Part shown: one piece after another, positions 15,164-29,154 of the stretch
How the letters are laid out: the number at the start of each line of letters is the position of its first letter
How positions within the stretch are numbered: the first letter of the stretch is position 1
Made by a program: the position numbers and the translations under genes
Notes under the pieces: model-generated
What the model was told of the DNA's origin: nothing
Databases searched by the model: none
Seen by the model: only the letters and a program-made list of their open reading frames with translations
Assembly (NCBI GenBank): GCA_034521595.1
Contig: JAXHMG010000003.1
Location: forward strand, 384,001 to 448,000
Direction of reading: 5' to 3'
Origin: Gemmatimonadota bacterium
GTDB lineage: Bacteria > Gemmatimonadota > Gemmatimonadetes > Longimicrobiales > Gaopeijiaceae
Length of the DNA stretch: 64,000 nucleotides

Positions 15164-16021
15164 ATGTGCGCTCTCACTCCTCCGAATCTTAGTCGCCGAC
15201 AGTTTCTGGCAGCGACTTCCTTGTTGCCGATCGGCCTGTTGCTTTCGAGTTGCCGCGACGACGGTGCCTCCGATACTGCGTCCCGCTCCGCCGTGGGGAG
15301 TCACGCCCCCGGTGACACCACGGGACTCCCGCCCCGGGTCGTCGCGCTACGGAGCGAAGCCGGAACCTTTCGCTTCGACCCCGTGGGCATCTTGCTGGAG
15401 CCCGAAAGCGACCTGCATTGGCTCAATATGGGTGATTTCCATACAACGACCGCCTTTCATCCTGAGTACGACGACCTCCTGGCTGCAGGGGTACCGCTGC
15501 GCATACCGGAGGAGGCCGAGCCATGGCACAGCGGCATGTTGGGGCTGACCGCGGGGACCCAGTTCACGCATCGATTCACGGTGGAGGGCGTGTACGACTA
15601 TTTCTGCCAACCCCACTACAGCTTCGGCATGGTGGGCAGGGTCGTCGTGGGTCGACCCGGATCAGGACCGGCTGTGGGCAACCCGTTGCCGGAGACGCCT
15701 CCCACGCTTCGGGAGAACATGCCTGCCGTGGACGAGATCGTGGGTCCGGGGGGCGTGGTGTTCGAGTGGTCCGCCCGAATCAATGGCGTGCTCTTTCAGG
15801 CAGCCAACGGAGACGACCCCGCTCGGTTCGCGACGGAGGTTGCCCGAGGGATGAAGGAGCACCCGGCGCTTCGCGACTACCTGGGAGAGCGTGGCCGCCG
15901 CCTGGAGGAGGAGATGGCTTCCTTCCGGGAGGCCGCGGTTTCCGGAGAAGGCTACGAGACCTTGGTCCGACGAGCCGACGCGGCCAAGGAGATCCTCCAA
16001 GCGAGCCGAGGCCGGGGCTGA
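15164..16021 (+). CDS. Tat-exported cupredoxin (halocyanin/plastocyanin-like) with a C-terminal helical extension
   Basis: SRRQFL Tat motif, LSSC lipobox; type-1 Cu ligands FHTTT and YFCQPHYSFGM. Confidence 0.85.
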   Translation: MCALTPPNLSRRQFLAATSLLPIGLLLSSCRDDGASDTASRSAVGSHAPGDTTGLPPRVVALRSEAGTFRFDPVGILLEPESDLHWLNMGDFHTTTAFHPEYDDLLAAGVPLRIPEEAEPWHSGMLGLTAGTQFTHRFTVEGVYDYFCQPHYSFGMVGRVVVGRPGSGPAVGNPLPETPPTLRENMPAVDEIVGPGGVVFEWSARINGVLFQAANGDDPARFATEVARGMKEHPALRDYLGERGRRLEEEMASFREAAVSGEGYETLVRRADAAKEILQASRGRG

Positions 16022-16176: not shown

Positions 16177-16968
16177 ATGGACATGACGAAGATTTCAGGA
16201 TTGGCGGGACTGCTCGGGTTGGCGGCTCTGGTGCCGGCGAGCTCCGGCTTCGTGCCCACCGACGAAGCCCCACCGGCCGCGACGTCCGAGGCGGAGCATT
16301 CGGTCGCGGCAGGTCAGTGGCATATTCGAGCGGAGGGAGCTCGGATCATCGGCGGTTACGGCGACAACTTCGCCTACGACGGTGAGAATGTGCGACCTCT
16401 CGACGGTGAGGCCGAGATGCGCCTGAACACGGCTGACGGCACCGGTGAGCTCGAGGTCACGATCCGGACCACACCGGAATCGGGTCCGATCCACTTTTCC
16501 GCGGACCAGTCGTGGGAAGGCGAGATCCGCATAGTGAAGCAGCTCAACACCGAGCAGATGGACATGGCTCGAGTGGAGGAAGAAGTCTGGCTTCACGGCG
16601 ATACGGGCAACGAGGCGCCGGTCATGCCTCGGCTCTTCAACTATTTCGCCACGTGGGGGCCTTCCCAGATCTTCGTGAACGGCGAGCGGGTCGTCCCGAT
16701 GATCGGAAGCCATACCATGTTGTCCGAGCAGGCTCGAGGGGCGGACGGCAGGATCGCCAAGGCCGGCCAGGTCTATGGCCCCATGGCCGGGGACAAGACC
16801 GGATTCACCAACCCGTCCGAGACCGAGTTCCACTACGTGGCCCATACCACGCAGCCGGACGAGAACAACTTCCCGCCCCATACTGCGTGGATCCACCTCC
16901 ACTTCTCCGACGTCGAAGTGCTGGAGAAGCCGGCCGACGTGGAGATTCCGTACCAGCGTGCGAGGTAG
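16177..16968 (+). CDS. Secreted hypothetical protein with several His/Met-containing motifs
   Basis: Signal peptide; WLHGDTG, GSHTM, FHYVAH, PHTAWIHLHF; GC3-biased codons. Confidence 0.75.
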   Translation: MDMTKISGLAGLLGLAALVPASSGFVPTDEAPPAATSEAEHSVAAGQWHIRAEGARIIGGYGDNFAYDGENVRPLDGEAEMRLNTADGTGELEVTIRTTPESGPIHFSADQSWEGEIRIVKQLNTEQMDMARVEEEVWLHGDTGNEAPVMPRLFNYFATWGPSQIFVNGERVVPMIGSHTMLSEQARGADGRIAKAGQVYGPMAGDKTGFTNPSETEFHYVAHTTQPDENNFPPHTAWIHLHFSDVEVLEKPADVEIPYQRAR

Positions 16969-17059: not shown

Positions 17060-17088
17060 AGAACCGTTCGCCGCTCGTTCCGGTTGGG
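17060..17088 (+). promoter_or_regulatory. AGAAC-N18-GTT ECF-type promoter
   Basis: GAAC 17061-17064, GTTGGG from 17083. Confidence 0.6.
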
Positions 17089-17135: not shown

Positions 17136-17651
17136 ATGAGCCGGACGCTCGAGGAACAGATCAGCTCGGAGCTCGATACGCTCTGGCAGGCGGCGCTCTT
17201 CCTTACCGGTGGGGTGGAGCAAAGAGCCGAGCCCCTCTTATTGCATGTCATCACGTTGGTGAGCCACGAGGATCCCGGCGCGCTCGAACGTGAAGACGGC
17301 ACGGACGTGCTCGAGCGATTCATGCTCCGACAGTTCTTCGATCAGCCGCTGCGTGGGGGGGACTCTCCACCACGCTCCACGAGCTCGTGTGAAGGGGTCG
17401 ACCCGGACGTCGCCGAGTTGCTCAACGACGCGGGCGCGGTTCCCGATCGAGCGAGGCCCGCGTTGTGGCTGGTGCTCGTTCGCAGGCGATCCTACGAAGA
17501 GGCGGCGGAGGTCTTGGGGATCGAAGGCGACACGTTGAGGGAGCTTCTGGGCTACCGTGACGTCCTCATGGCGAGAGTCGCTGCTCGATCGGGTGGACGT
17601 GTGCCCGGGGACCCCGAGGGGGGATCGACGTCACGGGAGGGAGCGTCGTGA
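17136..17651 (+). CDS. Degenerate ECF sigma-like protein
   Basis: LDTLWQAALFLTG (region 2-like) and SYEEAAEVLGI (region 4-like); lacks DAEDxxQ and GTVKSR; RBS GGAGG. Confidence 0.65.
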   Translation: MSRTLEEQISSELDTLWQAALFLTGGVEQRAEPLLLHVITLVSHEDPGALEREDGTDVLERFMLRQFFDQPLRGGDSPPRSTSSCEGVDPDVAELLNDAGAVPDRARPALWLVLVRRRSYEEAAEVLGIEGDTLRELLGYRDVLMARVAARSGGRVPGDPEGGSTSREGAS

Positions 17652-18457
17652 ACTGCAGGGAGGCACGTGAAGGGCTGTGGCCACCGGAACGACCACGACT
17701 GCTCGACCCGGAGATCGAACGTGCGCGGGAGCATGTTCGGCACTGCCCGGAATGTGCCCGGTATTTCCAGCAGGATCGCGCGGTGCTCGATTCGTGGCAC
17801 CGGCTGCGCGGTGTTCGTGCGCCCCTACGGGTGCGCCTACACGTCTTTCAGGCACTCGCCCGGGCTCGTGGAGAAGGTGGAGAAGTCCGAATCGCCGAGG
17901 AGTCGACCGGAGCGCCGACGGGAGAAGTGGGACGTTCTCGGGCCAGGCGATGGATGGCTGTCGCGATCGTGGCGTTGATCGTCGTTGGATCCGTCTCGGT
18001 GGTGTTCGGCTCGACCTGGTCGCAGGAGAGGGTCGCGTCGGAGCCCGAGCCGGCGGCTGCGGGGTCCGAGGCCGCGTTCGTCGAGGACTACCTCAGGCGT
18101 GCCGTGGGCGAGGACTATCTCGAGACGTCGGATCGAGCCGAGATCGCCCGCTTTCTGCGACGGGAGCTGGGATTGCAGTCCGAGCTTCTGGAGCTGTCGG
18201 GACTCGTGCCCACCAGAGTGGAGATTTGCTTACTCGAGGGACGGCGCGGAGCGATGGTGGTTTATCGGCTCGACGGAGAGCGTGTGACGCACTACCTCGT
18301 GCCGAAGCGCGCGGAAGACCGCCCACCACGGGTCGCGCGGGAACACGGGGCTCTGGCCGTCGTGACTTGGGCCTCCTCGACGATCGAAGAGGCTCTCGTG
18401 GGACAAGTCTCGCCGGATACACTCCTCCAACTCGCGCGGGACGGCGTCTCCGAATAG
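17648..18457 (+). CDS. Membrane-anchored zinc anti-sigma factor (zf-HC2/ZAS)
   Basis: MNC...HVRHCPEC, one TM helix, extracytoplasmic domain. Confidence 0.8.
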   Translation: MNCREAREGLWPPERPRLLDPEIERAREHVRHCPECARYFQQDRAVLDSWHRLRGVRAPLRVRLHVFQALARARGEGGEVRIAEESTGAPTGEVGRSRARRWMAVAIVALIVVGSVSVVFGSTWSQERVASEPEPAAAGSEAAFVEDYLRRAVGEDYLETSDRAEIARFLRRELGLQSELLELSGLVPTRVEICLLEGRRGAMVVYRLDGERVTHYLVPKRAEDRPPRVAREHGALAVVTWASSTIEEALVGQVSPDTLLQLARDGVSE

Positions 18458-18550: not shown

Positions 18551-19120
18551 ATGACCGACTTCAAGCTCCAGACCGCTGAAACCGCCACGCCCGAGGGCCG
18601 CGAAGCCATCGAGAAGGCTGAGCAGGGCATGGGCTTCGCGCCCAACCTGGTCAAGATCCTCGCCAACGCTCCAGCGGCGGCCCATGCCTATCTCGACCTC
18701 AACGCGCTGCTCGACAGTACTTCCCTGTCGCCACAGGAGCAGCAGGTGGTGTTGCTTGCCACGAGCTTCGAGAACGAGTGCGGTTATTGCATGGGGGCCC
18801 ATTCGACCGTGGCCGGGATGGTCGGGCTCGACGACGGTGATCTCCAAGCGATTCGTGAGGGCACCGAGCTGCCCACCGCCCGCTTGAACGCGCTCCGGGA
18901 TTTCACCCGAGCCGTCGTGCGGAAGCGCGGTTATGTGACCGAGGACGACATTCGTCGATTCCGTGACGCGGGCTTCGAGCAGGAGCAGGTGCTCGAGGTG
19001 CTCCTCGGCGTCGCGATGAAGACCCTCTCGAACTACACGAACCACATCGCCAATACGCCGCTCGACGAGGCGTTCCAGGCGCAGCAGTGGTCGCCTCCGA
19101 AGGGTGCGGTCACCGCGTGA
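18551..19120 (+). CDS. AhpD/carboxymuconolactone decarboxylase family protein (CxxC)
   Basis: ENECGYCMGAH, KTLSNYTNH motifs. Confidence 0.9.
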   Translation: MTDFKLQTAETATPEGREAIEKAEQGMGFAPNLVKILANAPAAAHAYLDLNALLDSTSLSPQEQQVVLLATSFENECGYCMGAHSTVAGMVGLDDGDLQAIREGTELPTARLNALRDFTRAVVRKRGYVTEDDIRRFRDAGFEQEQVLEVLLGVAMKTLSNYTNHIANTPLDEAFQAQQWSPPKGAVTA

Positions 19121-19172
19121 TGAACGGGCCGCCGGTCGGGTGGGGATGTCTCACCCGGCCGGCGGGCTCACC

Positions 19173-19781
19173 ATGCCGACCATGACTACTCTCACCACGC
19201 GTGGCCGGGCCACGCGGACCCGCATCGTCGAGGCGGCGGCTCGACTCGTGCACCTGAACGGAGTCGCGGCCACCACGGTGGACCAGGTCCTCGAGGAAGC
19301 CGGAGCCGGCAAGAGTCAGTTCTACCATTATTTCGGCACGAAGGACGACCTCGTCGAAGCCGTGCTCGAGTTTCAGGCGGCCGTCAGCGAAGGCGAGCAG
19401 ACCCGGATCCTCGAACAGCACCCCGGATGGGACGGAATCCGGGTCTGGCTCGATGCCGTCGTGGAAGGGCAGAGGCGTGCGGACTACGCCGGGGGATGCC
19501 CGATCGGGTCGATGGCGGCGGAGATGGCGGACAGGGATCCGGAGCTGAGAGTCCGGCTGGGTGAGGCGTTCGAGCGGAAGCGCGCGGCGCTCGAGCACCG
19601 GCTGCGCGAGCTTCAGGACGACGGGGAGCTCGACGGGGCCGCGGAGCCGGAGGGACTCGCCACCTTCGTGATCGCCACGCTTCAGGGGGCGCTATTGCTC
19701 ACGAGCACCCTCAAGCACGACCACGCGCTCGCTCAGGCCGTCGGGGAGACCTGGCGGCACCTGGTTTCGTTCCGGCGTTAG
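19173..19781 (+). CDS. TetR family regulator (NemR-like, conserved GCP cysteine)
   Basis: HTH ...GAGKSQFYHYFGTKDDL; GGCPIGSMAAE; start uncertain (19146/19173). Confidence 0.9.
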   Translation: MPTMTTLTTRGRATRTRIVEAAARLVHLNGVAATTVDQVLEEAGAGKSQFYHYFGTKDDLVEAVLEFQAAVSEGEQTRILEQHPGWDGIRVWLDAVVEGQRRADYAGGCPIGSMAAEMADRDPELRVRLGEAFERKRAALEHRLRELQDDGELDGAAEPEGLATFVIATLQGALLLTSTLKHDHALAQAVGETWRHLVSFRR

Positions 19782-19788
19782 CAGCCTT

Positions 19789-20106
19789 TCAAGAGGACGA
19801 CATCCCCTCGTCTTCTTCCAGGCTCGCGATGATCCGATCGCGCAGCTCCGGGGGCACGTCATGGTGTTGGGCGGCCCGCGACACGGCTTCACGGAAGGAC
19901 TGTTCGAACACGAGCCACGGGTAACACCGCGCGCAGGTCTCCAGGTGGGTGCCGACGCGCTCTTCCATGTTCGGGTCGAGCTCGTTGTCCAGCCATTCGA
20001 AGAGTCTCTCCGCGGCTTCTTCGCAGGAGATCCCACCGGGCTCGTCGTTGCGAGGCTGTCCCTTCCGGCGGCGCAGCAAGCGCCGGAGCTCGTCGGTCCA
20101 CGTCAT
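19789..20106 (-). CDS. Soluble zinc anti-sigma factor (RsrA/RshA-like)
   Basis: ISCEEA...LDNEL...HLETCARC; no TM segment. Confidence 0.85.
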   Translation of the reverse strand: MTWTDELRRLLRRRKGQPRNDEPGGISCEEAAERLFEWLDNELDPNMEERVGTHLETCARCYPWLVFEQSFREAVSRAAQHHDVPPELRDRIIASLEEDEGMSSS

Positions 20107-20717
20107 GTCGATGGGTCCTTGGCATCCGCGCTGGAGCTCTGAGTCGAGCGCCCGATGATCCCTTGTTCCACGGCGTAGTCGTACAGCTCGTGCTGGAGTC
20201 GTCGTCGCCCACGATAGAGCCGGCTCTTCACGGTGCCCACGGGCACTTCCAGGATTTCCGCGATCTCCTGGTAGGGAAGCTCCTCGAGGTCCGAGAGGGT
20301 CACGACGTCTCGGAACTCGTCGGGCAACTCGTCGATCGCTCGCAGGACCTCGCCGTCGACGATCCGGCTCCAGAACTCTCCTTCCGGATCTCGTCCGCGC
20401 GCCGCGAGGAACACCGTCGCCTCCCGAGAGATCCTGTTCGGATCTTCTTCGGCGGCGTCCGCGACGATCTCGTCGTGCCGACGGGTGCGCTCCTCCCGTT
20501 GGAGGAAGTGATTGCGGCAGATGGTGAACAGCCAGCTCTTGATCCGGGTGCCGGGGGTGTACTTGTCCCAGTTCCTGAATGCGCGGAGGAATGTCTCCTG
20601 CGTCAGATCTTGCGCCCGATCGGGATCTCGGGCGAGGGAAAGCGCGAAGCGGTATACCGCATCCATCTGCGGCAGGGCTTCGTCCTGGAAGGACCCGTCG
20701 GGGGCGTTCGCGCTCAT
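20103..20717 (-). CDS. ECF sigma factor (SigR/SigH-like)
   Basis: AQDLTQETFLRAF, KYTPGTRIKSWLFTICRN, YQEIAEILEVPVGTVKSRLYRGR. Confidence 0.92.
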   Translation of the reverse strand: MSANAPDGSFQDEALPQMDAVYRFALSLARDPDRAQDLTQETFLRAFRNWDKYTPGTRIKSWLFTICRNHFLQREERTRRHDEIVADAAEEDPNRISREATVFLAARGRDPEGEFWSRIVDGEVLRAIDELPDEFRDVVTLSDLEELPYQEIAEILEVPVGTVKSRLYRGRRRLQHELYDYAVEQGIIGRSTQSSSADAKDPST

Positions 20718-20834: not shown

Positions 20835-20864
20835 CCGAACCTTCCTGTCGCGTAATCGGTTGGG
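20835..20864 (+). promoter_or_regulatory. CCGAACCTTCC-N12-GGTTGGG (GAAC-N18-GTT) promoter
   Basis: Identical core to the motif at 23239-23268. Confidence 0.7.
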
Positions 20865-20901
20865 CGCCCGGAGAGCACGTCCCCTATCGCAGGATGAGCC
20901 C

Positions 20902-22065
20902 ATGAGAACGCGCGACCGTGGAACCGGCCGATATTTCGGATGCCTACCGACACGATCAGGCGGCGGGATCGGACTGAGCGCCGGGTTCGTGTTGGTCGTG
21001 ACGTTGGCGGCCTGCGACGGTGGCGATTCGACCGGCCTCAGTCAACCGAATGGCCCGTCGGATGGTGGAAGCGGGGAAAGCGGGACGGCGTGTCGCGTCT
21101 CCACCGACGATATCCTGGGTCTCCTGGGACCGGATGCGATCCCGGCGCTCACCAACCCACCGCTCGTCGCTCCCGACCACGAGGACGCCTCGTACCTGTC
21201 GGAGGAGGACAGGGTGGTGGGCCTCGTCGTGGATGGCTCCGCCTATGCGTTTCCCCTGAACGTGCTCCGGTGGCACGAGAACGTGAACATCGATGCCGGG
21301 GACGAGCAGCTCGCCGTCTCGTACTGTCCCCTGACGGGGACCGCCCTGACGTTCGACCGATCCGTCGTGGACGGCGCGGAGCTCGGCGTGAGCGGCCTCC
21401 TGTTCCGCAACAACCTCGTGTTGTACGACCGCGGCTCCGAGGACCGCTCCTTCTTTCCCCAGATGCTGCGTTCCGCGCAGTGTGGCCCGCTGTCGGATCG
21501 GGAGCTCGGCCTACCGATGGTCGCATCCTGGGAGATGCGCTGGGATGCATGGAAAGATCTCTTCCCGGACACGCGCGTGTTGTCACGGGAAACCGGATTC
21601 CGTCGTGACTATACCTCGAATCCGAACGTCGGATATGAGGAGATCGACAACCCCAGGACGCTGTTTCCCCTCGTCCTCGATCCCCGTCGGCCTCCCAAGG
21701 AGCGGGTGCTCGGTATTCCCACGGGAGGCGATGGTGGTCCGGCCTATCCGTTCGAGGAGCTCGCCGAATCGGAACGCCGCGCGATACACGTCGGACGCGC
21801 TCCCGGCGGCAGGGTCGTGTTCTGGAGTGCGGAAGCCGAAGCCGCGATCGCGTTCCGAGCCGAAGTGGACGACCAAGCTCTCAGCTTCACGGCGTCGGCC
21901 GGAGGGTACGTGGATCGGGAGACCGGCTCGACCTGGAGGCTGGACGGGCTCGCCGTCTCGGGACCGCTCGAAGGCCGGCGACTCGAGCCGGTCGCCGAAT
22001 CCTACGTCGCGTTTTGGTTCGCCTGGGCGGATTTCCACCCCGAAACATGGGTTTGGAGGAACTGA
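20902..22065 (+). CDS. DUF3179 family lipoprotein (copy 1)
   Basis: DAIPAL, WHENVN, SYCPLTGT, GVSGLLFRNNLVLYDR, FWFAWADFHPET; LAAC lipobox. Confidence 0.88.
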   Translation: MRTRDRGTGRYFGCLPTRSGGGIGLSAGFVLVVTLAACDGGDSTGLSQPNGPSDGGSGESGTACRVSTDDILGLLGPDAIPALTNPPLVAPDHEDASYLSEEDRVVGLVVDGSAYAFPLNVLRWHENVNIDAGDEQLAVSYCPLTGTALTFDRSVVDGAELGVSGLLFRNNLVLYDRGSEDRSFFPQMLRSAQCGPLSDRELGLPMVASWEMRWDAWKDLFPDTRVLSRETGFRRDYTSNPNVGYEEIDNPRTLFPLVLDPRRPPKERVLGIPTGGDGGPAYPFEELAESERRAIHVGRAPGGRVVFWSAEAEAAIAFRAEVDDQALSFTASAGGYVDRETGSTWRLDGLAVSGPLEGRRLEPVAESYVAFWFAWADFHPETWVWRN

Positions 22066-23238: not shown

Positions 23239-23268
23239 CCGAACCTTCCCACGCCGTGGTTGGTTGGG
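23239..23268 (+). promoter_or_regulatory. CCGAACCTTCC-N12-GGTTGGG (GAAC-N18-GTT) promoter
   Basis: Same motif and spacing as upstream of DUF3179 copy 1. Confidence 0.7.
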
Positions 23269-23306
23269 AATACGAGGAGCATGCCCCGAGCCGTGAGGAG
23301 GACCCC

Positions 23307-24482
23307 ATGCGAGCCCCGGACGATTCACCCGGCCGATATCCCCGACGGCGGCCGGGATCCGCACGCGGCAAGGTCGGGTTGAGCCTCTGCCTGGGCGTTG
23401 GCATGGCACTCGGGGCGTGCGACGGCGCTGATCCGACGGCCGCCAGCCGGTCCGAGAGCGCAACCGGCGAGGAAACGGACGAGAGCGGTGTGTTCTGTCG
23501 CATCCCCATAGGCACCATCTACTCCACGAACGGACCGGATGCGATCCCGGCGCTCACCAACCCACCGCTCGTCGCTGCCGACCACGAGAATGCATCGTAT
23601 CTGTCCGACCAGAACAGGGTGGTGGGCCTCCTCGTGGACGGCTCCGCCTACGCGTTTCCCCTCAACGTGCTCCGGTGGCACGAGAACGTGAACATCGACG
23701 TCGGGGGCGAGCAGCTCGCCGTCTCGTACTGTCCCCTCACGGGGACCGCCCTGACGTTCGACCGCTCCGTCGTGGATGGCGCGGAGCTTGGCGTGAGCGG
23801 CCTCCTGTTCCGCAACAATCTGGTTCTCTATGAACGGGGATCCGAGCAGCGTTCGTTCTTCCCCCAGATGCTCCGATCCGCACAGTGCGGTCCGCTGGCC
23901 AGGCAGGAGCTTCAGCTACCCATGGTGGCTTCGTGGGAGATGCGTTGGGATGCATGGAAAGATCTCTTCCCGGACACACGCGTGCTGTCGCGGGAAACGG
24001 GGTTCGATCGCAACTACGAGGCGAACCCGAACGCGGAATACGAACAGATCGACAACCCTCGAACGCTGTTCCCCGTCGAGCCCGATACCCGCAGGCTTCC
24101 CAAGGAACGAGTGCTCGGCATTCCCACGAGCGGGGACGGCGGCCCGGCTTATCCGTTCGAAGAGATGAAGGGCGCGGCCCGACGTACGATGGAGCTCGGG
24201 ACCGGTCCGGGCGCGATCGTGGTGTTCTGGCACGGCGATGCGGAAGCGGCTATTCCGTTTCGCGCCGGCTTCGACGGCCAGGCTCTCACGTTCTCCCCAT
24301 CATCGGAAGGATACGTGGATCGCGAGACGGGCTCGACCTGGAGGCTCGACGGGCTCGCCGTCTCGGGACCACTCGAGGGACGGCGACTCACGCCGGTCGC
24401 GACGGCGTACGTGGCGTTCTGGTTCGCGTGGGCGGATTTCCATCCCGAAACGTGGGTTTGGAGCGCGTCGGGAGGAGAATGA
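23307..24482 (+). CDS. DUF3179 family lipoprotein (copy 2)
   Basis: Close paralog of 20902-22065 with long identical DNA stretches; LGAC lipobox. Confidence 0.88.
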   Translation: MRAPDDSPGRYPRRRPGSARGKVGLSLCLGVGMALGACDGADPTAASRSESATGEETDESGVFCRIPIGTIYSTNGPDAIPALTNPPLVAADHENASYLSDQNRVVGLLVDGSAYAFPLNVLRWHENVNIDVGGEQLAVSYCPLTGTALTFDRSVVDGAELGVSGLLFRNNLVLYERGSEQRSFFPQMLRSAQCGPLARQELQLPMVASWEMRWDAWKDLFPDTRVLSRETGFDRNYEANPNAEYEQIDNPRTLFPVEPDTRRLPKERVLGIPTSGDGGPAYPFEEMKGAARRTMELGTGPGAIVVFWHGDAEAAIPFRAGFDGQALTFSPSSEGYVDRETGSTWRLDGLAVSGPLEGRRLTPVATAYVAFWFAWADFHPETWVWSASGGE

Positions 24483-26088: not shown

Positions 26089-29000
26089 ATGAAGGACTCG
26101 CCTCTTCCGGACTCGACGCTTCTCGGCGCCGGGCGGATGGGACATCATGCCGGTCAGGTGGGAGGTGACTCCATACCCGGCCCCCTTCCACTCGTTGGTC
26201 GCGACGCCGATCTCCACGCGCTGTGGGGACTCCTCGACGGGAACGGGAGAGGAGCTTCGGTCGCCGTGATCTCCGGTGAGGGCGGGGTGGGGAAGTCCCG
26301 CCTGGCCGCGGAGCTCGCGCGACGCGCCGAAGGCGAGGGATGGAGCGTCGTGCAAGGTCGGGCCTACCCGGTCGAAACCGGCGTGCCGTACGCGCTCTTC
26401 GCCGATGCTTTCCTTCCAATTATGCGCGAGATGGACCCCGCCCGGCTCGCGATCCTGAGCCGGGGCGGTGAGGCGGAGCTGCGCCGACTCTTCCCGGCGC
26501 TCGGCGGTGGGGAGCGGTTCGTCGACGACTCGGGCGACCCCACGGAGTTCCGCACGCGTCTGTTGTGGAACTTCACCGAGTTCACGAAGAGCTACGGCAA
26601 ACGGTCACCTCTCTTGTTGGTGCTCGAAGATCTGCAATGGGCCGACGGTTCCTCTCTCGAGCTCCTCCACTTCCTCGCGCGCCAGGTCACGGAGGACCCG
26701 GTCTTCATCGTGTGCACGTACAACGACGCCGAGCGTGAGCCGAACGCCCAGCTCGTGCGCACGGAGCGCTCCCTGATGAGTCTCGGCGTCGCCGCGCTCC
26801 ATCGCCTCGACCCGCTCGGGCTCGAGGATGTGGTGCACCTCGTGAGCGCGACGTTCGACACGGAGGCGACCGTGGTGCGCGATCTCGCGGCGCTGCTGTT
26901 CGAATGGACGCGTGGCAATGCGTTCTTCATCGAAGAGATCCTGAAGTCGATGGTCGCTTCCGGGAGGCTTTGTCGCGAGGACGGCGTGTGGGTGGGATGG
27001 GACGCCGCGGACTTCTCTCTTCCGGGCTCGATTCGTGATGCGGTGCTCGATCGGATCCGTGCCTTGTCCCCCGATGCGCGGACCGTGATCGAGCTCGCGG
27101 CCGTCGTCGGTGCGCGCGCACGCTATCCCGTCATCGCGGCACTGAGTCGGTTGGAAGAAGCGGACTTGCTCGCGGCCTTGGACGAGCTCCGCGTCCACGG
27201 TGTGCTCGAGGAGCGGGAGGAGGGCGATGTCGTGGTGTACGTTTTCGCCCATCCTCTGGTGCGCCAGACGCTGTACCGTGAGTTGGGGCTCCAACGGGCG
27301 CGCGTGCTTCACGGACGGGTGGCGGAAGCCCTGGAGGTGGTTCATGGGGACCGCGCGCTCGAGCACGCGGACGAGCTTGCGTACCACTTCTCGCGTACCG
27401 ATTCGGCGACGTTGCGGTCGAAGGCCGCCGCGTATCTGACCGCGGCTGGACGGCGGGCCCTCGATCGGCGCGCGGACCAGGAGGCGGTGCGGTATCTCGA
27501 GGAGGCCAGGGAGCTCACGCATACCGAGTCTCCGACGGACGAGGGGCCCGACAGGGTGGAGCTCGCGTCGCTCCTGGCCCGAGCAAAGCAACATCTGGGT
27601 GAGTTCGATGAGGCGGTGGCGCTGTGGACGGAGGCCTTGGAAGGTGTGCCCGCGGGAGACCGGAAGCGTCTGGACCTCATGCGCGCGCTAGGCATGGCGC
27701 ATTTCTGGTGTGGCCGCCACGAGGAAGCCCACCGGGTGCTCGACGCGGGGTTTGACGCGGCGCGAGTGGCGGGCGATGCGGAAGCCATGGTACGGCTGCG
27801 CGTGGCGAAGGGTCACTGCCTGCACGAGGTCGGGCGAGGAGACGAAGCCCTGGAAACCGTCCGCTTGGCACTGCCGCTGGCCGAAGAGCTTTCCGACGCG
27901 GCGCTCCTCGCCCGGGTGCACCGGGCGCTCGAGCTCCTCCATGTCTGGATCGGCCCGCCGGGCCTGGCTCACGAGCACGGTCATCGGGCCATCGAGCTCG
28001 CGCTGAAGGTCGGAGACGTCTCCGTAGAGTTCTGGGCCCGGTGGGGTTGGGCGGTGTTGGGCGGTATGCGTGGCGACCCGGAGCGCACGCACGAGGCCAT
28101 CGCAGAGCTGACCGAGCTCGCCGATCGGGCGAGATCGCCCGTTCTGCGGCTGTGGACGGACGAGCTGGAGATCGAGTTCGCGTACGGACGCGGGGAATGG
28201 GACGCGGGCATGGCGCTCGGGGAACGCGCGATCACGCTGGCCACCGATCTCCGTCAGCGCACCATTCTTCCGCGGCTCCTCGTTTGGACCGCCCAGTTCC
28301 ATCTGGGTCGAGGACATCAGGAGCGGGCACGGGAGTTGATCGACCGGGCCGTGGAGATGGCTCGGCCCGATCAGATCGATCGGCCGGTCGACGTTCATCA
28401 GGTGGTGCCGACGTGCATCGGGCTCGCACACTACCGGATCGGCGTGGGGGACTATGCCGGAGCCATCGAGGCCGGCGAGCGGGGCTTCGAGATCGCCGAA
28501 GGGACCGGCTACACGCTCTGGGCGGTGCACCGCCTCCTACCGGTTCTGGCGGAAGCCTGCCTCTGGGCCGGCGAGATCGACCGCGCCGGGCAGATCGGCA
28601 CACGGCTCCGGACGAACGCCGAGAGGCTCGACCACAAGCTCGGTCTGGCGTGGGCCGATGCTTGTGATGCGCTCGTGCGTTGGAAACAGGGCGATCCGAA
28701 GGGAGCGATCGCCCTCATGCGGCGGTCTTCCGCATCGCTCGAGGAGATACCGATGATTCCGTATGCGGCTCGCGTCCGGCGGCAGCTCGCCGGGCGCCTC
28801 CTCGAGATCGGGGACCGGGAAGGCGCCCTTGCGGAGCTGAAGCACGTGCACGAGACCTGTGTCCGACTCGGCGCGACCCCCGAGCTCGAGAAGACCCGGC
28901 TCATGTTTCGGGAGGCCGGCCATCCGGCGCCTCCGAAAGGGTCGGGCGAGGGCCTGGCGGGCCTCACCGATCGTGAGATGGAGGTGGCTCGCCTGACCGT

Positions 29001-29154
29001 CCAGCGCCTCACCAACGCCGAGATCGGACGACGTCTGGGCATCGCGGCGCGCACGGTCAGCACGCACCTTTCGAAGATCTACGGCAAGCTCGACATCGGT
29101 TCGCGAGGTGAGCTCGCCGATCTCGTGCGGGAACGCGTGGAGGACGCCCCATGA
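26089..29154 (+). CDS. Large ATP-binding LuxR regulator (LAL/STAND AAA + TPR + HTH)
   Basis: GEGGVGKS, LEDLQWAD, TRGNAFF, C-terminal LTDREMEV...NAEIG...TVSTHL. Confidence 0.92.
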   Translation: MKDSPLPDSTLLGAGRMGHHAGQVGGDSIPGPLPLVGRDADLHALWGLLDGNGRGASVAVISGEGGVGKSRLAAELARRAEGEGWSVVQGRAYPVETGVPYALFADAFLPIMREMDPARLAILSRGGEAELRRLFPALGGGERFVDDSGDPTEFRTRLLWNFTEFTKSYGKRSPLLLVLEDLQWADGSSLELLHFLARQVTEDPVFIVCTYNDAEREPNAQLVRTERSLMSLGVAALHRLDPLGLEDVVHLVSATFDTEATVVRDLAALLFEWTRGNAFFIEEILKSMVASGRLCREDGVWVGWDAADFSLPGSIRDAVLDRIRALSPDARTVIELAAVVGARARYPVIAALSRLEEADLLAALDELRVHGVLEEREEGDVVVYVFAHPLVRQTLYRELGLQRARVLHGRVAEALEVVHGDRALEHADELAYHFSRTDSATLRSKAAAYLTAAGRRALDRRADQEAVRYLEEARELTHTESPTDEGPDRVELASLLARAKQHLGEFDEAVALWTEALEGVPAGDRKRLDLMRALGMAHFWCGRHEEAHRVLDAGFDAARVAGDAEAMVRLRVAKGHCLHEVGRGDEALETVRLALPLAEELSDAALLARVHRALELLHVWIGPPGLAHEHGHRAIELALKVGDVSVEFWARWGWAVLGGMRGDPERTHEAIAELTELADRARSPVLRLWTDELEIEFAYGRGEWDAGMALGERAITLATDLRQRTILPRLLVWTAQFHLGRGHQERARELIDRAVEMARPDQIDRPVDVHQVVPTCIGLAHYRIGVGDYAGAIEAGERGFEIAEGTGYTLWAVHRLLPVLAEACLWAGEIDRAGQIGTRLRTNAERLDHKLGLAWADACDALVRWKQGDPKGAIALMRRSSASLEEIPMIPYAARVRRQLAGRLLEIGDREGALAELKHVHETCVRLGATPELEKTRLMFREAGHPAPPKGSGEGLAGLTDREMEVARLTVQRLTNAEIGRRLGIAARTVSTHLSKIYGKLDIGSRGELADLVRERVEDAP

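Follow-up and report, generated by a model that had tools for sequence, protein, structure and literature searches.

To our knowledge, sigma factor mimicry is known from a single system, PhyR-NepR-EcfG, and our search of the literature on sigma factor mimicry and sigma-like anti-sigma decoys found no stand-alone sigma decoy. Here we analyse a two-gene operon in a 64,000-nucleotide stretch of a Gemmatimonadota genome (assembly GCA_034521595.1, contig JAXHMG010000003.1, positions 384,001 to 448,000), called the window throughout, in which the gene for a 171-residue sigma-like protein (P0001) overlaps the gene for a membrane anti-sigma factor with a zinc-binding anti-sigma (ZAS) domain (P0002). 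The original prediction for this locus was that a degenerate extracytoplasmic function (ECF) sigma factor serves here as a decoy for anti-sigma factors and feeds an extracytoplasmic signal into a neighbouring ECF sigma factor. The family to which P0001 belongs is an ECF sigma homologue that misses both the Pfam definition of the group and its acidic core-binding motif. We tentatively read P0001 as a non-transcribing sigma mimic inside a SigH-like regulon, a reading to which we give a probability of about 0.45.

For Mycobacterium tuberculosis SigH, the passages of PMC6411747 on core and promoter contacts describe sigma2 as sitting on the beta-prime coiled-coil through electrostatic contacts. 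W81, I85 and N88 form the pocket for T-10 (Arg occurs at the N88 position in some working M. tuberculosis sigmas), a specificity loop (residues 72-79, with F72, T76 and N77) holds T-9, and M181, S182 and R186 read the -35 element GGAAYA, G-34 being read by R186; the promoter architecture of SigH and SigE is given there as GGAAYA...GTT. ECF43 sigma factors, which are without the acidic DAED motif, are intrinsically inactive until phosphorylated, as reported in the sections of PMC8999054 on that group. The ECF classification of Casas-Pastor 2021, as outlined in PMC7826278, demands matches to Pfam Sigma70_r2 and to Sigma70_r4 or Sigma70_r4_2. Proteins whose sigma2 or sigma4 misses Pfam are excluded from that scheme, and the family described here therefore lies outside it by construction; standard annotation would miss it.

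In P0001 the Pfam scan found no match to Sigma70_r2, and its best matches, to PhyR_sigma-like (E 0.018) and Sigma70_r4_2 (E 0.15; 12.2 bits against a cut-off of 25.7), cover residues ~103-138 and lie under their cut-offs. NCBIfam gave sub-threshold matches only, to region 4 of several ECF models. A scan of the host genome (3.49 Mb, 93% complete, with the window on its contig 3, C3) with PF08281 returned 22 places above the cut-off, some of which are LuxR-type response regulators and not ECF sigmas, and the P0001 gene is not one of them. Profile searches place the family more firmly. A search of 1.84 billion representative proteins with a profile built from 18 orthologues retrieved 87 clusters (50% identity) at E <= 1e-30, 177 at E <= 1e-10 and 3007 at E <= 0.001, with ordinary ECF sigmas among the last. 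From the family, whose lengths run from ~150 to 205 aa, we aligned 120 full-length members, to which all counts out of 120 below refer; scanned singly at E <= 0.01, these matched Sigma70_r2 in 1/120 cases, Sigma70_r4_2 in 43/120 and PhyR_sigma-like in 34/120. The profile of this alignment, compared with the Protein Data Bank (PDB), matched M. tuberculosis SigH (E 2.7e-16) and SigE (E 5e-13) over positions 4-165, that is, over its full length; SigR was matched in sigma2 (E 1.9e-7) and PhyR proteins in sigma4 only (6e-4 to 0.04). The 18-orthologue profile ranked the structures in the same way. By profile comparison, then, the family consists of true, though degenerate, sigma homologues from the SigH/SigE branch. 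The 171-aa frame at 17136-17651 with the outline of sigma regions 2 and 4, on which the original prediction rested, is confirmed, and both strings quoted for it are present.

An AlphaFold model of P0001, built with the 18-orthologue alignment (predicted local distance difference test, pLDDT, 77; predicted template modelling score 0.72), has sigma2 helices at residues 5-23, 28-44, 47-51 and 58-69, a linker at 74-86 with pLDDT <50, and sigma4 helices at 90-101, 106-115, 120-127, 131-138 and 141-154. Foldseek returned no match to this model at E <= 0.001, its rows being ECF sigmas and PhyR only, with E 2.6e-3 or worse, and the neighbours in an Atlas structure search were SigE-family sigmas with template modelling (TM) scores of 0.61-0.68. 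When Atlas language-model features were compared instead, the clusters nearest to P0001 (scores 0.95-0.96) were 'hypothetical protein' entries of 180-200 aa, commonest in Acidobacteriota and Pseudomonadota, whose r4_2 annotation is partial or missing. Other phyla may contain comparable sigma-like families that have gone unrecognised.

The degeneracy of the hallmark motifs could mean that P0001 is a decaying remnant, a pseudogene beside a useful anti-sigma gene, and this degeneracy is the one thing that speaks for such a view. The pattern of conservation makes it scarcely credible. A relative with an uninterrupted frame occurs in 13/41 related genomes (the host counted). Across the 12 loci examined, one of them cut by a contig end, the sigma-like frame is intact in 12/12 with no internal stops, and a P0002 orthologue lies directly 3' of it in 12/12. 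The 87 clusters at E <= 1e-30, the confident fold and a set of near-invariant residues point the same way: R107 is invariant (120/120), W111 is kept in 119, R117 in 114 and F22 in 111, and E6, E7, L16, A20, F22, L23, G26, A31, W111, L112, R117 and Y120 are all at least 90% conserved. A GGGAGG ribosome site lies 8-13 nt 5' of the P0001 ATG; both genes of the pair have GGAGG-type sites, and the ribosome site and the start overlap are conserved. Conservation, which the original prediction had named as a check, thus finds the family conserved and under selection, not a decaying pseudogene. Its distribution is narrow: in an even sample of 301 Gemmatimonadota genomes (including the four unpublished genomes G025, G095, G191 and G213), strong matches at E <= 1e-30 occur in only 6, from two families of one order, and many matches near 1e-17 are canonical SigH-like ECFs.

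We mapped the SigH contact residues onto the family by HMMER alignment and a column table over the 120 members. In region 2.2 (DAEDxxQE), the central A is kept in 115 members and the E in 103, while at the fourth position of DAED 21 members have D and 32 have R. A single member retains the Q of QE (V in 43, L in 26, I in 10), and the E position after it holds E or D in 52. P0001 itself reads R-A-E-P-L-L-L-H, so that the flanking D, Q and E are gone and the A-E pair remains; the reported loss of the motif was in this respect slightly overstated. The W81 equivalent is W in 71/120 members and V in P0001, R predominates at the I85 and N88 positions, and the specificity loop is variable and acidic. 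The third sigma2 helix of the P0001 model spans just 12 residues (58-69) and is followed by a stretch with pLDDT <50. The recognition helix is altered as the original prediction had described it, with D-T-L-R-E-L-L-G-Y-R-D in P0001 against G-T-V-K-S-R-L-x-R-A-R in canonical ECFs: the S182 equivalent is E or D in 54/120 and the R183 equivalent L or W in 102/120. The R186 equivalent is aromatic in 88/120 in the gap-free HMMER register or R in 40/120 in the MAFFT register with one gap, and falls on G139 or Y140 of P0001 by register; one later Arg of the helix is kept in 97/120. The window's own genus forms the most degenerate subgroup, with no W81 equivalent and RAEP for DAED. The beta-prime clamp-helix stretch encoded in this genome, judged by eye on the translation, looks ordinary. 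On our preferred reading, the sigma-like protein has most likely lost the ability to initiate transcription by itself. A charge swap between helix 1 of the anti-sigma and the sigma4 helix was considered as the cause of the acidic recognition helix and rejected, because every anti-sigma of the family has the helix-1 Arg, even where the partner is a canonical sigma.

The protein could also be a conditionally active sigma, inert as made for want of the acidic beta-prime patch and dependent on a modification or cofactor switch in addition to release from its anti-sigma. EcfP of group ECF43 provides a precedent, being without DAED and in need of phosphorylation on Thr (PMC8999054, in its treatment of EcfP), and the column after QE holds T in 47 and S in 12 of the 120 members. 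As presented in the same source, however, an ECF43 sigma is accompanied by a Ser/Thr kinase and has no anti-sigma, whereas here an anti-sigma is always present. No kinase turned up among the annotated neighbours, in which no search aimed at kinases was made, and a switch of this kind would leave the loss of the DNA-reading residues unexplained. We regard it as very improbable.

By its invariant residues and predicted topology, P0002 is an intact class I ZAS membrane anti-sigma and the fixed partner of the sigma-like protein. C3, H29, C33 and C36, which fit the C/H-x23-26-H-x3-C-x2-C zinc motif, are invariant in 11/11 P0002 orthologues together with an L-W-P-P-E motif, the zinc ligands are invariant also in 8 further relatives, and the N-terminal helices of the AlphaFold model (3-10, 21-32, 34-54 and 60-77) make up a four-helix anti-sigma domain. 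Library models all scored under their cut-offs (NCBIfam anti-sigma E 7.1e-5, RsrA E 0.017, zf-HC2 E 0.42; NF052375 22.9 bits, cut-off 100), and the anti-sigma profile found RsiW alone among PDB sequences (E 0.068). All 11 orthologues have a hydrophobic stretch where the model has a helix (97-119), though its sequence is little conserved. The GTG start of P0002 (17648) overlaps the P0001 stop by 4 bp in the string GTGA; the proposal of an overlap with an intact HxxxCxxC anti-sigma gene bearing a transmembrane helix is thus upheld by the overlap, the zinc ligands and the modelled helix. The C-terminal alpha/beta domain (pLDDT 80-93) is highly conserved, with C194 and H215 invariant. In VIA-align it superposes on residues ~211-315 of RseB and MucB with Z 9.3-9.6 (root mean square deviation 2.5-3.4 over 90-99 residues), ahead of TM1622 (Z 8.4) and of unrelated rows (Z <= 6.8); Foldseek alone gave E 6.6e-3. 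On the evidence of the models, this likeness is one of shared fold only.

The partners of this anti-sigma family form a graded series. In other families of the phylum, P0002-family anti-sigmas (full length, E 1e-20 to 1e-61) follow canonical or intermediate sigmas. The three canonical partners (L085, L087 and L088, from genomes G134 and G201) match a canonical-ECF hidden Markov model (HMM) at E 1e-36 to 1e-39 and carry AEDLLQD, WLFTIL.RTNLNR and GTVASRLYRARR. The three intermediates (L083, L084 and L089) match the same HMM at E 1e-11 to 1e-13; their D..QE and Asn-rich helix are gone and their LYRAR is kept. Since partners of one anti-sigma family grade in this way, the sigma-like protein is the descendant, in place, of the anti-sigma's cognate sigma. 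Rates of change run in opposite directions at the two ends of the series. Pairwise identity in the canonical set is 59.7% for the sigma against 37.8% for the anti-sigma (sigma higher in 3/3) and in the intermediate set 42.8% against 40.6%, each of these sets comprising three pairs; in degenerate pairs it is 36.4% for the sigma-like protein against 43.3% for the anti-sigma, with the sigma-like protein higher in 8/66, or 1/66 after length normalisation. By these identities the sigma-like protein of the degenerate branch is evolving faster than its anti-sigma, the reverse of what canonical pairs show. The canonical partners share, in 3/3 cases, an element ~40-90 nt 5' of the sigma genes, roughly GGAT(T)TC, ~13 nt, GGTGTCT(C/T), also written GGAT(T)TC...GGTGTCTC, which is probably their own autoregulated promoter.

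The degenerate operons have a promoter of a different kind. The original prediction had read GAAC-N18-GTT upstream of the pair, and this is present as GAACC at 17061-17065 and CGGTTG at 17081-17086. An equivalent motif lies 5' of 12/12 orthologous operons, at 67-107 nt in 11 and at 198 nt in one, and also 5' of the L081 and L082 operons. Across the 12 it consists of GAACC (once CAACC, once GAACT), 15 or 16 nt, and a pentamer ending in TT, which is CGGTT in the window's genus and mostly GTATT elsewhere; read as xGAACC-N17-(G/A)TT, it has the architecture of SigH/SigE promoters. A crude test found no second conserved 7-mer upstream of the operons, the maximum being 11/12 sequences against 11-12 in 20 shuffles. 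In one same-genus operon (L002, on G004:C225) a run of N occupies ~1-70 nt of the upstream stretch.

This promoter class extends beyond the pair. The 3.49-Mb genome has 6 sites with GAACY-N15-CGGTTG, which exceeds chance (three Markov-1 simulations gave 2 sites each), and 3 of the 6 precede the sigma-like operon, the DUF3179 gene at 20902 and another DUF3179 gene at C3:2251595. A copy that is nearly exact precedes the DUF3179 gene at 23307. With a position weight matrix (PWM) built from the 12 sigma-like promoters and scored within 350 nt upstream, a score of at least 9 was reached by 20/30 DUF3179 genes and by 20/334 control windows. It was reached, too, at 5/9 DUF3179 loci in genomes without the sigma-like gene (4/8 when the unpublished G025 is left out), and therefore some other sigma must read the class. 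From these patterns, the reader of GAACC...GTT promoters is probably the canonical SigH-like ECF. In a genome-wide scan with the cross-genus matrix, 32 sites scored at least 14; the top extras, C3:1200259 and C3:3047413, were dropped because their link to a downstream gene was unconvincing.

The DUF3179 protein encoded at 20902 has a signal peptide with an LAAC lipobox, as read from the translation. The host genome has four DUF3179 paralogues (window 20837-22065 and 23241-24482; C3:2251504-2252695 and 2244298-2245476), three behind GAACC-N15-(C/T)GGTTG and one in an operon after a SigH-like ECF and an RsrA-like anti-sigma. A table of PMC9312934 includes DUF3179 among selenoprotein families, with a UxxC/T motif. 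The DUF3179 proteins of the window carry C-P-L-T in this position, a hint of a redox role that would suit a SigH/RsrA-type regulon. As a by-product, the analysis defines a likely SigH-like regulon of DUF3179 lipoproteins in Gemmatimonadota.

The obvious candidate for the reader is a SigH-like ECF such as the canonical ECF sigma encoded 3' of the pair on the opposite strand (Sigma70_r2 E 1.6e-13, r4_2 E 4.2e-19), whose best NCBIfam match is SigH_actino (E 3.3e-39, under its cut-off). A canonical SigH-like ECF is found near the pair in 4/14 loci: 3/12 within the context examined, plus one adjoining it in G268. In 5 genomes the contig of the pair also carries DUF3179 genes less than 11 kb away, ECF-RsrA-DUF3179 operons occur in five genomes, and several SigH-like ECF genes of the neighbour's type have the motif upstream with PWM scores of 17.3, 14.8, 10.9, 10.2 and 9.6. 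Upstream of the neighbouring ECF itself, on its own strand, we found no motif, the best PWM score of 2.9 being reached by 21% of background windows. The link between the pair and the neighbouring ECF is real in that both loci belong, with DUF3179, to one promoter class. As a separate observation, in one paralogue type of SigH-like ECF a short conserved frame (MSQ..LWERV.MAW...) lies ahead of the sigma gene, as found in the host genome at C3:2243300-2243470 and in the relatives L064, L065, L069, L070 and L073. It enters the sigma frame through a frame change or an in-frame TGA ('1 TGA' in 5 relatives) and may be an upstream open reading frame (ORF) or an N-terminal extension.

Homology, degeneracy, conservation, synteny, the graded series, the relative rates and the shared promoter class are direct observations, and from them we propose the following. 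The two-gene module descends from an ordinary ECF sigma/anti-sigma pair. Its anti-sigma is still intact: a ZAS domain that binds zinc, a single membrane helix and an outer domain of RseB-C-like fold. The sigma has turned into a pseudo-sigma, in which the sigma2 and sigma4 folds are kept but most of the acidic patch that anchors ECF sigmas on the beta-prime clamp helices is gone, along with the latter half of the helix that reads the -10 element and the conserved residues that read the -35 element. The operon would not be self-contained, being transcribed from a SigE/H-type xGAACC-N17-GTT promoter common to the DUF3179 genes, and on the simplest view this class would be read by the canonical SigH-like ECF with its own soluble RsrA-like anti-sigma. 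The pseudo-sigma would act as a protein ligand, a mimic, of ZAS anti-sigma domains and be held by its membrane partner; an outside signal, or the amount of mimic, would shift the quantity of ZAS anti-sigma available to bind the SigH-like sigma. As the operon would in turn be driven by that sigma, the result would be a loop of feedback or partner switching in the regulon. Anti-sigma binding, absent RNA polymerase binding, the reader of the promoter and the whole titration step are what we infer here. One specific course of events, in which an envelope signal removes the membrane anti-sigma, the freed mimic titrates the soluble RsrA-like anti-sigma(s), the SigH-like ECF and the DUF3179 genes are switched on and the mimic operon is re-expressed, seems to us unlikely in this exact form.

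In favour of a mimic are the missing beta-prime patch, the short -10 helix, the changes in the recognition helix, rates of evolution that run in reverse and a promoter class that belongs to older canonical sigmas. Several points weigh against it. As a rule, where a sigma homologue lies behind an ECF promoter in translational coupling with a class I anti-sigma, it is a working sigma that regulates its own operon. The strong conservation of both genes requires that the module have some output. An additional partner would be needed for a decoy, and the host genome has three SigH-like ECFs, each with its own soluble RsrA-like ZAS protein, which leaves the membrane anti-sigma without an orphan canonical sigma and signal transfer into the neighbouring ECF as an inference. 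Outside the window's genus, the majority of members retain the A-E of DAED, the W81 equivalent, D38 and F or L at the Y90 and I91 positions. The eight 'canonical' comparators from the host genome were chosen by a pattern demanding D..Q, so that their 8/8 agreement at those columns is circular, and the generality of the acidic motif rests for this reason on the SigH/SigE alignments and on the ECF43 sections of PMC8999054. Co-occurrence of the pair with a SigH-like ECF at E <= 1e-30 (13/13 genomes with the pair, 14/28 others) and with DUF3179 (13/13 against 8/28) speaks for a mimic, but was counted on related genomes and overstates independence. Promoter details add to this. By eye, G is present at -34 in 3/14 sigma-like promoters against 20/24 DUF3179 promoters with a GAAC core (those without it being three in this genus, from G000, the host, and G004, plus a single weak site in G015). 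In the sigma-like operon promoters, GAACC is usually followed by a T-rich stretch. As R186 reads G-34 in SigH and the family has no conserved Arg at that place, the sigma-like protein may read its own subclass. The promoter motif of the canonical relatives, moreover, differs from that of the degenerate operons, so that promoter and sigma changed together, which fits co-evolution.

The main rival reading is a working, extremely divergent ECF sigma, in a new ECF group, with a cognate ZAS membrane anti-sigma. An outside signal would remove the anti-sigma, and the sigma would bind RNA polymerase through a modified interface and transcribe its own operon and the nearby DUF3179 genes from a subclass overlapping the SigH-like class. 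The operon layout and translational coupling are typical of such a sigma, an ECF-type promoter is conserved at a fixed distance in 14/14 operons, and no canonical sigma gene in the host genome carries the exact motif, which the sigma-like operon and DUF3179 genes do. The scarcity of G-34 matches the loss of the Arg that reads it in SigH, the promoter motif changed when the sigma changed, the A-E, W81, D38 and one recognition-helix Arg are retained, and the Atlas neighbours of the fold are SigE-family sigmas. One family member was named a sigma24 protein by its source, and ComX and SigI are working sigmas whose domains miss Pfam (as mentioned in PMC7826278). Against a working sigma stand the lost D, Q and E of region 2.2, the short -10 helix and the acidic or hydrophobic recognition helix, together with an evolution faster than that of its own anti-sigma, unlike its canonical relatives. 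The promoter, too, is still GAAC...GTT, which is read by canonical residues that are now gone and exists as a class without the family, and the window's subgroup, the most degenerate in protein sequence, has yet the most canonical -10 (CGGTT). We consider a divergent working sigma quite possible, if short of probable, and keep the sigma mimic as our preferred reading.

If the specific course of events set off by an envelope signal were true, the pair would amount to a partner switch through which an extracytoplasmic signal reaches a cytoplasmic redox-type ECF with no phosphorylation involved, and one that evolved stepwise from an ordinary sigma/anti-sigma pair whose intermediates are alive in sister lineages. 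In either case the family consists of free-standing sigma-like proteins with the hallmarks of a mimic that are still paired with a membrane anti-sigma, and whether it marks the origin of a sigma mimic or the drift limit of a working sigma is testable with a few proteins and three promoters.

The features of the locus are collected in Table 1. Directly 5' of the operon, the window encodes a plastocyanin/azurin-like copper protein (15164-16021, E 5.3e-9) and a 263-aa secreted protein without a family (16177-16968), and neither is kept beside the pair in other genomes. On the 3' side of the anti-sigma gene, a carboxymuconolactone-decarboxylase-family gene and a TetR regulator (18551-19781) hold the same position in two same-genus genomes, G004 and G002. 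Further along lies a large AAA_16-TPR-LuxR regulator (MalT-like STAND, 1021 aa, 26089-29154). In the L002 and L003 loci, from two same-genus genomes, a membrane protein like DsbD/CcdA thiol-disulfide transporters (LSPCVWPLVP motif) is encoded 5' of the pair.

Table 1. Features of the sigma-like/anti-sigma locus and its surroundings (window positions)
Feature	Position	Strand	Remarks
Operon promoter, ECF-type	17061..17086	+	GAACC (-35), 15 nt, CGGTTG (-10 GTT); 75 nt 5' of ATG
Sigma-like gene P0001	17136..17651	+	171-aa open frame
Parts of P0001			sigma2-like ~1-70; disordered linker 74-86; sigma4-like ~90-154 (AlphaFold model)
Anti-sigma gene P0002	17648..18457	+	269 aa, GTG start
Cytoplasmic ZAS domain, residues 1-77	17648..17878	+	C3, H29, C33, C36 and invariant LWPPE motif
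Predicted transmembrane helix, residues 97-119	17936..18004	+	AlphaFold model
Extracytoplasmic domain, residues 140-269	18065..18454	+	Fold like RseB/MucB C-terminal domain
Soluble RsrA-like ZAS anti-sigma of neighbouring ECF	19789..20106	-	zf-HC2 E 2.3e-9; TIGR03988 antisig_RsrA 56.2 bits vs cut-off 62.5
Canonical SigH/SigE-like ECF sigma	20103..20717	-	Start taken at ATG 20717 (inferred); longest ORF to 20903
Second motif copy GAACC-N15-CGGTTG	20837..20862	+	65 nt 5' of ATG 20902
DUF3179 lipoprotein gene	20902..22065	+	Pfam E 1.5e-77; divergent from neighbouring ECF
Third motif copy GAACC-N15-TGGTTG	23241..23266	+	66 nt 5' of second DUF3179 gene
Second DUF3179 paralogue	23307..24482	+	Pfam E 4.8e-76; 73% identical to first

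Among described systems, the nearest sequence relatives of the family are SigH-RshA and SigE-RseA of M. tuberculosis and SigR-RsrA of Streptomyces coelicolor. The pair resembles the SigH, SigR and SigE systems in its sigma2 and sigma4 domains, its C...HxxxCxxC partner and its GGAAC-N17-GTT promoter architecture. Unlike SigH and SigE, the P0001 family is without the D, Q and E of region 2.2, has a short -10 helix and has the S and R of the recognition helix replaced; unlike the SigR-RsrA type, its partner is membrane-bound with an RseB-C-like outer domain and is not a soluble redox sensor. The acidic sigma2.2 motif is missing as in ECF43 (EcfP/PknT), for which PMC8999054, where it deals with this motif, predicts poor intrinsic beta-prime binding; in contrast to ECF43, the P0001 family keeps A-E, has an anti-sigma and is degenerate in its DNA-reading residues as well. 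As in RseA-RseB and MucA-MucB, the anti-sigma is a membrane protein whose outer part has the RseB/MucB C-terminal fold, at 14-19% identity and as a fold likeness only, but here that domain is fused to the anti-sigma, there is no LolA-like large domain and the cytoplasmic domain is ZAS. The comparison with PhyR, whose sigma-like domain the original prediction took as its parallel, holds in function and not in descent. Like that domain, P0001 has a sigma2/sigma4 fold with degenerate promoter and core contacts and is proposed to bind an anti-sigma and not RNA polymerase; PhyR_sigma-like is its best sub-threshold Pfam match, and Foldseek gives a TM score of 0.56 to the PhyR-NepR structure 4qic. 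PhyR, however, is a response regulator fused to a receiver, whereas P0001 is a stand-alone protein of 171 aa with no receiver domain and no phosphorylation switch, its partner is a class I ZAS membrane anti-sigma and not NepR, and by profile it belongs to a different lineage, the SigH/SigE-like branch. We therefore regard the family as functionally like the PhyR sigma-like domain at most, and not as a member of that lineage.

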